From: Escherichia coli
Lineage (GTDB): Bacteria > Pseudomonadota > Gammaproteobacteria > Enterobacterales > Enterobacteriaceae
Strand: one strand, 5' to 3'
Assembly (NCBI RefSeq): GCF_048403405.1
Contig: NZ_CP183129.1
Length of the DNA: 64,000 nucleotides
Of the stretch, positions 18,895 to 55,756 are shown in pieces. Made by a program: the position numbers and the translations under genes. Each line of letters opens with the position of its first letter. Within the stretch, counting starts at the first letter, position 1. The notes beneath the pieces were generated by a model that had not been told where the DNA came from, did not search any database, and saw only the letters and a program-made list of their open reading frames with translations.

Positions 18895-18995
18895 AATGCT
18901 GGATCCGGCATGAACGCCTTATCCGGCCTACAAAATAGCGCAAATTCAATATATTGCACCATCCTCGCAGGCCTGATAAGCGTAGCGCATCAGGC
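18895..18995. repeat. REP/palindromic-unit-like elements in the kdpE-pgm intergenic region
   Basis: Imperfect palindromes ccggcatgaacgccttatccgg and gcctgataagcgtagcgcatcaggc, typical of enterobacterial REP sequences. Confidence 0.55.
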
Positions 18996-26294: not shown

Positions 26295-26362
26295 TGGGAT
26301 TGTTTGCATATTTCTTGCCGGATGCGGCGTAAACGCCTCACCCGGCCTGGTAGAACTTAAAA

Positions 26363-52743: not shown

Positions 52744-54282
52744 ATGGCTTTTGCCTCATTAATTGAACGCCAGCGCATTCGCCTGCTGCTGGCGTTATTA
52801 TTCGGTGCCTGCGGAACGCTGGCCTTCTCTCCTTACGACGTCTGGTCTGCGGCGATTATTTCGCTGATGGGGCTTCAGGCGCTGACCTTTAACCGCCGTC
52901 CACTCCAGTCTGCCGCTATTGGCTTTTGCTGGGGATTTGGCCTCTTTGGCAGCGGTATTAACTGGGTCTATGTCAGCATCGCGACTTTTGGCGGAATGCC
53001 TGGCCCGGTTAACATCTTCCTGGTGGTACTGCTGGCGGCGTATTTGTCGCTGTATACCGGATTATTTGCTGGCGTGCTGTCGCGTCTGTGGCCGAAAACC
53101 ACCTGGCTGCGCGTGGCGATTGCCGCCCCTGCTCTCTGGCAAGTGACCGAGTTTCTGCGCGGTTGGGTGCTGACTGGTTTCCCGTGGTTACAGTTCGGCT
53201 ATAGCCAGATTGATGGCCCGTTAAAAGGGCTGGCACCGATAATGGGCGTGGAAGCCATTAACTTCCTGCTAATGATGGTTAGCGGCCTGCTGGCACTGGC
53301 GTTGGTCAAACGCAACTGGCGTCCGATGGTGGTGGCCGTCGTGCTGTTCGCCCTTCCCTTCCCGCTGCGTTACATCCAGTGGTTTACCCCGCAACCGGAG
53401 AAAACCATTCAGGTTTCGATGGTTCAGGGCGATATTCCGCAATCGCTGAAGTGGGACGAAAGCCAGCTTCTTAATACGCTGAAAATTTATTACAACGCGA
53501 CGGCACCGCTGATGGGCAAATCGTCGCTGATTATCTGGCCGGAGTCGGCGATAACCGATCTGGAAATTAATCAGCAACCGTTCCTCAAAGCACTGGACGG
53601 TGAGTTGCGCGATAAAGGTAGCTCGCTGGTCACCGGGATTGTCGACGCGCGTCTCAATAAGCAGAACCGCTACGATACCTACAACACCATCATCACGCTG
53701 GGGAAAGGTGCGCCGTACAGCTACGAATCAGCCGATCGCTATAACAAAAACCATCTGGTGCCGTTTGGCGAGTTTGTCCCGCTGGAGTCGATTCTGCGTC
53801 CGTTAGCGCCGTTCTTTGATCTGCCGATGTCGTCGTTCAGCCGTGGGCCATATATCCAGCCGCTGCTGTCGGTAAACGGTATTGAGCTTACTGCGGCTAT
53901 TTGCTACGAGATCATTCTTGGCGAGCAAGTGCGTGATAACTTCCGCCCGGATACCGACTACCTGCTGACTATCTCCAACGATGCGTGGTTTGGTAAATCT
54001 ATTGGTCCATGGCAACACTTCCAGATGGCGCGAATGCGTGCGCTGGAGTTGGCGCGCCCGCTACTGCGCAGCACCAATAACGGCATTACGGCGGTGATTG
54101 GCCCGCAGGGTGAGATTCAGGCGATGATCCCGCAATTCACCCGCGAAGTATTAACCACTAACGTGACGCCGACTACCGGACTCACACCGTACGCACGTAC
54201 CGGCAACTGGCCGCTGTGGGTACTGACGGCATTGTTTGGTTTTGCTGCTGTGCTGATGAGCCTGCGTCAACGACGTAAATAA
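52744..54282 (+). CDS. lnt: Apolipoprotein N-acyltransferase
   Basis: 512 aa; N-terminal membrane domain and C-terminal nitrilase-fold domain. Confidence 0.95.
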
Positions 54283-54381
54283 TCCCTTCTTATCGTGCCG
54301 GAATACATCCCGTATTTCGGCACGCTCACCGGATGCGGCATCAGTGCGTTATCCGGATAACAAAATTCCCCTATCCAACTT

Positions 54382-54397
54382 TGGCACATCTATTGCT
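54382..54397 (+). promoter_or_regulatory. Sigma-54-like -24/-12 element (TGGCAC-N5-TTGCT) upstream of gltI - tentative
   Basis: Good match to the consensus TGGCACG-N4-TTGCW read in sequence, but it lies about 280 bp upstream of the gltI start, so assignment is uncertain. Confidence 0.3.
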
Positions 54398-54678
54398 TTG
54401 TTATACAAGGCAAAGCTTGAACCAGCATCAGTACAACCCGGTTGCACCACAGCAATCCACGGGTAGCACCAAAAGAGTGCATTTTAAGAATTTTGCTTCG
54501 GAATGGTGCGGCGCATCTCGCAAAAACAAACAATAAAACAGCAATATCTTTACATTTAACCAAACTAAATGTTACCTAACAGGCACAACACTGCACAATA
54601 AAGTTGCAGACGATAACAACACAAACACTCACAACAGGTATCCATGCGTTCTTAACGCAGAAGATAAAGGAGTTGGAT

Positions 54679-55587
54679 ATGCAATTACGTAAACCTGCCA
54701 CAGCAATCCTCGCCCTGGCGCTTTCCGCAGGACTGGCACAGGCAGATGACGCCGCCCCGGCAGCGGGCAGTACGCTGGACAAAATCGCCAAAAACGGTGT
54801 GATTGTCGTCGGTCACCGTGAATCTTCAGTACCTTTCTCTTATTACGACAATCAGCAAAAAGTGGTGGGTTACTCGCAGGATTACTCCAACGCCATTGTT
54901 GAAGCAGTGAAAAAGAAACTCAACAAACCGGACTTGCAGGTGAAACTGATTCCGATCACCTCACAAAACCGTATTCCACTGCTGCAAAACGGCACTTTCG
55001 ATTTTGAATGTGGTTCCACCACCAATAACGTCGAACGCCAAAAACAGGCGGCTTTCTCTGACACTATTTTCGTGGTCGGTACGCGCCTGCTGACCAAAAA
55101 GGGCGGCGATATCAAAGATTTTGCCGACCTGAAAGACAAAGCCGTAGTCGTCACTTCCGGCACTACCTCTGAAGTTTTGCTCAACAAACTGAATGAAGAG
55201 CAAAAAATGAATATGCGCATCATCAGCGCCAAAGATCACGGTGACTCTTTCCGCACCCTGGAAAGCGGTCGTGCCGTTGCCTTTATGATGGATGATGCCC
55301 TGCTGGCCGGTGAACGTGCGAAAGCGAAGAAACCAGACAACTGGGAAATCGTCGGCAAGCCGCAGTCTCAGGAAGCCTACGGTTGTATGTTGCGTAAAGA
55401 TGATCCGCAGTTCAAAAAGCTGATGGATGACACCATCGCTCAGGTGCAGACCTCCGGTGAAGCGGAAAAATGGTTTGATAAATGGTTCAAAAATCCAATT
55501 CCGCCGAAAAACCTGAACATGAATTTCGAACTGTCAGACGAAATGAAAGCACTGTTCAAAGAACCGAATGACAAAGCACTGAACTAA
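54679..55587 (+). CDS. gltI: Glutamate/aspartate ABC transporter periplasmic binding protein
   Basis: Start set at MQLRKPATAILALALSAGLAQA (signal peptide), 302 aa; the track ORF is a 25-codon upstream extension. Confidence 0.95.
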   Translation: MQLRKPATAILALALSAGLAQADDAAPAAGSTLDKIAKNGVIVVGHRESSVPFSYYDNQQKVVGYSQDYSNAIVEAVKKKLNKPDLQVKLIPITSQNRIPLLQNGTFDFECGSTTNNVERQKQAAFSDTIFVVGTRLLTKKGGDIKDFADLKDKAVVVTSGTTSEVLLNKLNEEQKMNMRIISAKDHGDSFRTLESGRAVAFMMDDALLAGERAKAKKPDNWEIVGKPQSQEAYGCMLRKDDPQFKKLMDDTIAQVQTSGEAEKWFDKWFKNPIPPKNLNMNFELSDEMKALFKEPNDKALN

Positions 55588-55589
55588 TT

Positions 55590-55744
55590 ACAAGAACCAG
55601 GGGCGGAAATTCCAGCCCTCTCGATTGTTACGTAGCACGGACAGACTATACGCCTGATGGTCGTTCCCCATCGGGCCTGAAAACCGCAATACGCTGGGTA
55701 ACAATCTTCGAGGGTAGCAGTTAACGCTGCTACCCTCTTTTTTC
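55590..55744 (+). ncRNA. sroC: SroC-like sRNA region in the gltI-gltJ spacer
   Basis: The 169-bp gltI-gltJ intergenic region ends in a strong hairpin plus T-run (agggtagcagttaacgctgctaccctctttttt) just 12 bp before the gltJ ATG. This matches the known SroC location; exact boundaries are not determinable from sequence. Confidence 0.45.
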
Positions 55745-55756
55745 TGGAGTAGATTT

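Follow-up and report, generated by a model that had tools for sequence, protein, structure and literature searches.

Background

NtrC enhancers are normally located upstream of the promoter, at about -100 to -150. In the glnA regulatory region, the sigma-70 promoter glnAp1 and the NtrC sites both lie upstream of glnAp2. Natural downstream enhancers of sigma-54 promoters are represented by the flagellar ftr elements of Caulobacter, which loop back to the promoter and use FlbD as the activator.

The glutamate/aspartate transporter operon gltIJKL is a listed Ntr operon, and all operons on the accepted NtrC list carry a sigma-54 peak; Zimmer 2000 is the source that Brown 2014 cites for its Ntr control. 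In E. coli, the 17-mer TTGGCACATCTATTGCT, which is also found in the DNA studied here, was reported as the intergenic sigma-54 ChIP-seq peak OS04, one of the strongest intergenic peaks (FAT 21; PSSM 11.7) and flagged as 'predicted in EcoCyc' (Bonocora 2015, Table 1). Its downstream gene was given as insH3 only because MG1655 has IS5 at this place (Bonocora 2015). The orthologous sequence TGGCACGTCTATTGCTTT upstream of gltI (STM0665) in Salmonella LT2 was enriched in sigma-54 ChIP-chip, and gltIJKL expression in Salmonella was 1.8-fold higher in the wild type than in an rpoN mutant when a promiscuous activator was expressed (Samuels 2013). For NtrC, a 55-fold ChIP-seq peak (peak 2) was assigned to gltIJKL in strain NCM3722 (Brown 2014), and in gSELEX experiments in vitro the insH/lnt spacer was bound by the RpoN holoenzyme as well as by NtrC (Shimada 2021). 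The operon was later described as having both sigma-70 and sigma-54 promoters, with the sRNA SroC induced by nitrogen limitation in Salmonella and in IS5-free E. coli but only marginally in K-12, which the authors attributed to the IS5 element upstream of gltI (Miyakoshi 2022).

The gltI locus resembles the glnAp2 and glnHp2 type of Ntr promoters in its TGGCAC-N5-TTGCW element, its role in amino acid scavenging, the occupancy by sigma-54 and NtrC in vivo, and the presence of NtrC-type dyads two to three helical turns apart and ~60-115 bp from the promoter. In contrast to the position of about -100 to -150 in those systems, the gltI dyads are found past the predicted start, at +36 to +103, and the presumed housekeeping promoter is likewise downstream of the sigma-54 promoter, so that the arrangement is a mirror image of that of glnA. 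The gltI leader of ~271 nt compares with mostly 18-50 bp for the classic Ntr promoters (Bonocora 2015, Table 1). Activator sites downstream of the start are shared with the Caulobacter ftr elements, from which gltI differs in both activator and organism.

Genomic context and the sigma-54 promoter

The stretch analysed here (the window) comprises 64,000 nucleotides of E. coli DNA and carries the genes ybeZ-ybeY-corC-lnt followed by gltI-sroC-gltJKL, all on the + strand according to the ORF list, Rfam and the RefSeq annotation of identical DNA. As this annotation places the coding sequence at the equivalent of 54679-55587, the gltI ATG was assigned to 54679, leaving a spacer of 396 bp behind the lnt stop at 54282. 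Several complete E. coli genomes share the spacer with 100% identity, and 5423 of 5426 have part of it. The sRNA sroC was detected at 55583-55745 (Rfam RF00369, 174.8 bits) and spans, as expected, the 3' end of gltI and the spacer to gltJ. The features of the region are collected in Table 1.

Table 1. Genes, promoter elements and other features of the lnt-gltI region, in window coordinates
Feature	Position	Strand	Basis or remark
lnt CDS, apolipoprotein N-acyltransferase, upstream gene	52744..54282	+	ORF list; RefSeq annotation of 100% identical record
Hairpin/palindrome	54294..54324	.	Repeat search; arms 54294-54306 and 54312-54324, 13 nt, 92% complementary, 5-nt loop
Degenerate REP-like imperfect palindrome ccggatgcggcatcagtgcgttatccgg, arms CCGGATGCGGC...TTATCCGG	54329..54356	.	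Likeness to REP Y consensus
Sigma-54 -24/-12 element TGGCAC-N5-TTGCT, TGGCACATCTATTGCT (TGGCAC-ATCTA-TTGCT)	54382..54397	+	Exact match; ChIP-seq motif OS04; 81/81 loci
Sigma-54 transcription start, predicted	54406..54410 (~54408)	+	~12 nt past -12 GC; leader ~271 nt
NtrC-like site 1, TGCACCACAGCAATCCA	54443..54459	.	Pattern scan, conservation profile; centre ~+44
NtrC-like site 2, AGCACCAAAAGAGTGCA	54465..54481	.	Pattern scan, conservation; centre ~+66
NtrC-like site 3, TGCTTCGGAATGGTGCG	54494..54510	.	Pattern scan, conservation; centre ~+95
Most conserved non-coding block, probable sigma-70 promoter region of short gltI mRNA	54511..54581	+	Conservation profile
CTAA, target of IS5D in E. coli K-12 MG1655	54576..54579	.	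MG1655 annotation and alignment; intact in window
Hairpin CTGCA...TGCAG near 5' end of presumed short transcript	54591..54609	+	Also scores as NtrC-like dyad
C/A-rich GcvB target and translational enhancer, 5' UTR	54610..54636	+	Sequence; Yang 2014, Miyakoshi 2015
Small hairpin just 5' of Shine-Dalgarno	54645..54659	+	RNAalifold: 6 pairs, 4 with compensatory changes, 20 genera
Shine-Dalgarno AAGGAG	54667-54672	+	
gltI CDS, Glu/Asp ABC transporter binding protein	54679..55587	+	ORF list; RefSeq annotation of identical DNA

A sigma-54-like element, TGGCAC-N5-TTGCT, had been marked in the first-pass annotation about 280 bp upstream of gltI. The element is confirmed as an exact match that lies 282-297 bp 5' of the ATG, with its GG at 54383-84 and its GC at 54395-96 in the canonical GG-N10-GC register. 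When both strands of the 64-kb window were scanned, this was the single exact match to TGGCAC-N5-TTGCW. The number expected by chance is 0.10 per window, and at least one match occurred in 9 of 100 shuffles; judged from the window sequence alone, the motif is only suggestive and does not prove function. Transcription is predicted from sigma-54 promoter geometry to start near 54408, and the start placed 19 bp downstream of the motif centre by Bonocora 2015 gives the same position.

Comparison with the published data shows that the motif is the documented, already known sigma-54 promoter of gltIJKL. After coordinate conversion, the OS04 peak centre (688441 in U00096.2) and motif centre (688459) correspond to window positions 54407 and 54389, respectively, and NtrC peak 2 of Brown 2014 falls at ~54387-54467, with a resolution that is too low for single dyads. 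The documented promoter of this operon (ybeJ-gltJKL; EcoCyc, OS04, STM0665) has an identical motif in the same place between lnt and gltI. Strain background is the sole difference, as the window lacks both the IS5 of K-12 and the rhomboid-family gene of most E. coli.

Conservation of the promoter in Enterobacteriaceae

A search with GltI, limited to one genome per species, yielded 80 gltI loci, which represent about 20 genera of enterobacteria, or 81 loci together with the window. An exact TGGCAY-N5-TTGCW is present in all 81, at 287-440 bp and mostly at -290 to -300 relative to gltI. Across the 80 loci and the window, the element and its spacing are conserved while the spacer and flanks vary: the N5 spacer takes 30 distinct sequences among the 80 loci, and conservation stops ~7 bp upstream of the -24 element. 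The motif columns are also invariant when the sequences are aligned without anchoring on the motif. This pattern marks the -24/-12 element itself as the target of selection.

Within E. coli, roughly two thirds of the complete genomes align to the window only from 54434 onward. In these genomes lnt and gltI are separated by a gene on the opposite strand, annotated as encoding a 'rhomboid family intramembrane serine protease' of 625 aa. The gene is absent from the window, K-12 and E. albertii, and represents an insertion/deletion polymorphism that corresponds to window positions 54283-54433. In most E. coli, lnt is more than 2 kb away. Upstream DNA in this majority haplotype is unrelated to that of the window, with the 50 bp around the promoter only ~50% identical, and TGGCATGTAAGTTGCT is retained at 42 nt from GGTTGCACC, the same distance as in the window.

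Several genera carry a second TGGCAC-N5-(T/C)TGCT, exact or with one mismatch, in sense orientation within the lnt coding sequence (e.g. TGGCACGTCCGTTGCT), ~590-680 bp upstream of gltI; the E. coli equivalent is a poor match by eye. They are reminiscent of the sigma-54 sites that Bonocora 2015 reported inside genes. Two database records stood out in the survey. The gltI locus of 'Chryseobacterium sp. 18061' looks typically enterobacterial and that of 'Citrobacter freundii M-21' seems to have an Atlantibacter-type spacer, and both assemblies are probably mislabelled or contaminated.

Candidate NtrC sites in the leader

A pattern scan predicted three dyads in this region of the window, with 2-3 mismatches each to the consensus TGCACC-N5-GGTGCA (quoted in Hartman 2016 as TGCACC(A/T)4TGGTGCA). 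The three matches fall within 68 bp, where ~0.04 would be expected from the 38 matches per 64 kb. All of them are downstream of the predicted start, at +36 to +103, and not at the usual upstream position of -100 to -150. Sites 2 and 3 are near-invariant between genera. For site 2 the cross-genus consensus is AGCACC-N5-GGTGCA (one mismatch), with near-invariant half-sites and a free central 5 nt. In 78 of 80 loci, site 3 lies at a constant distance of 39 bp from site 2. Site 1 is strongly conserved in its left half and weakly in its right half. An 8+1+8 near-perfect palindrome, GTACAACC-C-GGTTGCAC at 54431-54447, overlaps the left half of this site; its cross-genus consensus is GTGCAACC-N-GGTTGCAC, and its half-sites face outward relative to the NtrC dyad.

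Upstream of the promoter, no NtrC site with up to 3 mismatches was found by the pattern scan between 53519 and 54442. The sequence TTCACCCGnnnGGTGCT, which occurs within lnt in several genera, was considered as an upstream site and rejected, as its E. coli equivalent does not look NtrC-like and lnt is over 2 kb distant in most E. coli. The comparison also yielded no conserved upstream dyad, and the DNA upstream of the promoter shows no relationship from one genus to another or between the E. coli haplotypes. Enhancer candidates that are conserved therefore occur only downstream of the start.

The distance from the promoter to site 2 falls into four classes: 82-84 bp (69 loci), 95-96 bp (5), 106 bp (4) and 114-115 bp (3). 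These differ by roughly one, two and three helical turns, a pattern that rests on only ~3-5 independent indel events but is suggestive of looping constraints. The spacing of the dyads to the conserved block further downstream (39 and 44 bp, nearly invariant) is more rigid than that to the sigma-54 element, and the dyads could instead serve this block. Conservation is low at 54400-54430, behind the predicted start, and inspection by eye of the unconserved stretch between promoter and dyads revealed no IHF site.

Downstream conserved block and short 5' untranslated region

The ~70-bp block at 54511-54581 (CGCAAAAATAAACAAT ... CAGCAAAATCTTTACATTAAGCCAAACTAAATGTTAACAAAC) shows the highest non-coding conservation of the spacer across ~20 genera, with fixed spacing to sites 2 and 3. 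It contains an A-rich segment, CGCAAAAACAAACAAT, followed by TTTACA (54549-54554) and TGtTACCTA (54570-54578). A sigma-70 promoter probably resides in this block, with a tentative assignment of the hexamers; a simple scan for sigma-70 promoters gave no site at its threshold. As conservation of the block is denser than a promoter alone needs, an additional regulator site is possible.

A potential second sigma-54 promoter, AGGCAC-N4-CTGCA at 54581-54595, would have set the dyads at the classical distance of -100 to -150. It was rejected on account of its GG-N9-GC spacing and the absence of the GG in most genera, and in MG1655 no sigma-54 peak beyond IS5 was attributed to gltI (Bonocora 2015). 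No GG-N10-GC element is conserved downstream of the sigma-54 motif.

In the short 5' UTR, the C/A-rich GcvB site is flanked by the hairpins at 54591-54609 and 54645-54659. The first of these is putative and appears as CTGCC...GGCAG variants in other genera. The GcvB site corresponds to a 27-nt CA-rich element that in Salmonella was described 45 nt before the AUG of gltI (Yang 2014; Miyakoshi 2015).

Palindromes at the 3' end of lnt

For the sequence preceding the sigma-54 element, the first-pass annotation had noted REP-like palindromes. The quoted string is present at 54329-54356, and a second palindrome occurs at 54294-54324. Both are assigned to the 3' end of lnt rather than to the promoter, as the corresponding place in other genera is taken by canonical CTTATCCGGCCTAC tails, unrelated REPs or intrinsic terminators. 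The 54294-54324 hairpin begins 12 nt past the lnt stop and has no T-run, and it is probably a 3'-end stabiliser or a degenerate REP partner. A weak Rfam match to the REP-derived naRNA4 on the - strand (54297-54358, E = 0.26, below the gathering threshold) covers this hairpin.

The extragenic 54329-54356 palindrome, 47-74 nt after the lnt stop, is similar to REP/BIME elements in being an imperfect palindrome of ~30 bp with CCGGATGCGGC...TTATCCGG arms just past a convergent or co-directional gene end. It is identical to the REP Y consensus at 25 of 34 positions, including the 11-nt CCGGATGCGGC arm and the TTATCCGG arm. Unlike the consensus it is degenerate, with the tail ATAAC instead of CCTAC, and the RefSeq record of MG1655 does not list it as a repeat_region in this spacer. 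A blastn-short search with this string matched just the 11-nt arm. Canonical REPs occur elsewhere in the window, at 18901-18931 and 26317-26348.

IS5 insertion in K-12

The IS5D site of MG1655 lies within the most conserved block, downstream of the sigma-54 motif, and the insertion splits the sigma-54 promoter and the NtrC-like sites from gltI. The presumed sigma-70 promoter would be destroyed as well, and the weak induction in K-12 thus demonstrates a need for sequences upstream of 54576 but not which promoter is involved. The K-12 derivative NCM3722 has an intact 396-bp spacer with no IS5.

Discussion

It is highly likely that the element represents an NtrC-activated, sigma-54-dependent promoter of the gltI-sroC-gltJKL operon. 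A nitrogen-regulated promoter with a long leader, as proposed in the first-pass annotation, is supported by OS04, the Salmonella ChIP-chip data, NtrC peak 2 and the occurrence of the motif in 81/81 loci. In the proposed mechanism, sigma-54 RNA polymerase would occupy TGGCAC-N5-TTGCT as a closed complex under all conditions. Upon nitrogen limitation, phosphorylated NtrC would assemble on the cluster of TGCACC-N5-GGTGCA-type dyads, centred ~44, 66 and 95 nt downstream of the start, and loop to the closed complex, with ATP-driven opening and a start near 54408. The resulting mRNA leader would run through the NtrC sites, a second, housekeeping promoter of the sigma-70 type (~54549-54585) and the short 5' UTR, which would supply the transcript with the GcvB-targeted C/A-rich translational enhancer. 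The REP-like palindromes would have no role in this process. The length of the leader is mainly accounted for by the presumed enhancer and the second, probably sigma-70, promoter, and not by any detectable RNA element.

The strongest alternative, although an unlikely one, is that the sigma-54 site is conserved but poised and unproductive, or has another role such as insulation against lnt read-through, and that nitrogen induction arises from the downstream promoter by means of another nitrogen-responsive factor. Many sigma-54 ChIP sites indeed give rise to no transcript that can be detected (Bonocora 2015), Salmonella shows only a 1.8-fold effect of rpoN, the IS5 argument cannot tell the two promoters apart, and the distances from the dyads to the downstream block are nearly invariant. 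On the other hand, ChIP-seq and gSELEX show that NtrC and sigma-54 both occupy the spacer. The only promoters known to be activated by NtrC are those of sigma-54, which also counts against this explanation. No conserved GG-N10-GC element is available downstream, where AGGCAC-N4-CTGCA is misspaced and its GG lost in most genera, and gltIJKL is itself counted among the accepted NtrC operons, every one of which has a sigma-54 peak.

The unusual leader length could also point to an RNA regulatory element (an attenuator, riboswitch or leader peptide) with the conserved blocks as RNA motifs, and GCACC-N5-GGTGC could pair as a 5-bp RNA hairpin. This explanation is very improbable, as the predicted fold of 54408-54700 (293 nt) is not significantly more stable than those of shuffled sequences (z = -1.64; 12 of 200 fold as well), the leader has neither an Rfam family match nor a terminator-like site, and the dyad half-sites are kept as sequence without compensatory changes, with some variants that break the pairing. 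A conserved small ORF is ruled out by the 11-31 bp indels after the start. Finally, the first-pass annotation had also offered a functionless chance match to the -24/-12 consensus, and the probability of this is negligible: although a single exact match in 64 kb would by itself not be very surprising (0.10 expected; 9/100 shuffles), chance is excluded by exact conservation in 81/81 loci of ~20 genera in which spacer and flanks vary, together with in-vivo occupancy in two species.

For the NtrC-activated sigma-54 promoter, the unusual feature is the apparent geometry of its enhancer, the sole aspect with a modest potential for novelty. The downstream dyads may be the functional enhancer. It is conceivable, and proposed here only tentatively, that Enterobacteriaceae have a conserved NtrC enhancer downstream of the sigma-54 promoter, within the leader and enclosed between this promoter and a sigma-70 promoter, whose helical phasing to the sigma-54 promoter was kept through indels of 11, 22 and 31 bp. 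No description of such a downstream NtrC geometry was found in the literature covered; Reitzer and Schneider 2001 and Zimmer 2000 were outside that scope. If the enhancer is indeed downstream, RNA polymerase must transcribe through its own activator complex, and the housekeeping promoter further downstream could likewise have its activity set by this protein-DNA complex. The locus would then offer a compact natural system for a sigma-54 polymerase that is activated from an activator complex and subsequently crosses it.

As IS5 severs promoter and enhancer from gltI, E. coli K-12 MG1655 is ill suited as a model of the nitrogen control of gltI, and NCM3722 and the window strain are intact. Confirmation of the motif adds little to the connection between nitrogen and GcvB, since this connection is already in the literature. 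The promoter ties the scavenging of glutamate and aspartate to nitrogen status and, via the 3'-derived sRNA SroC, does the same for the whole GcvB amino acid regulon.
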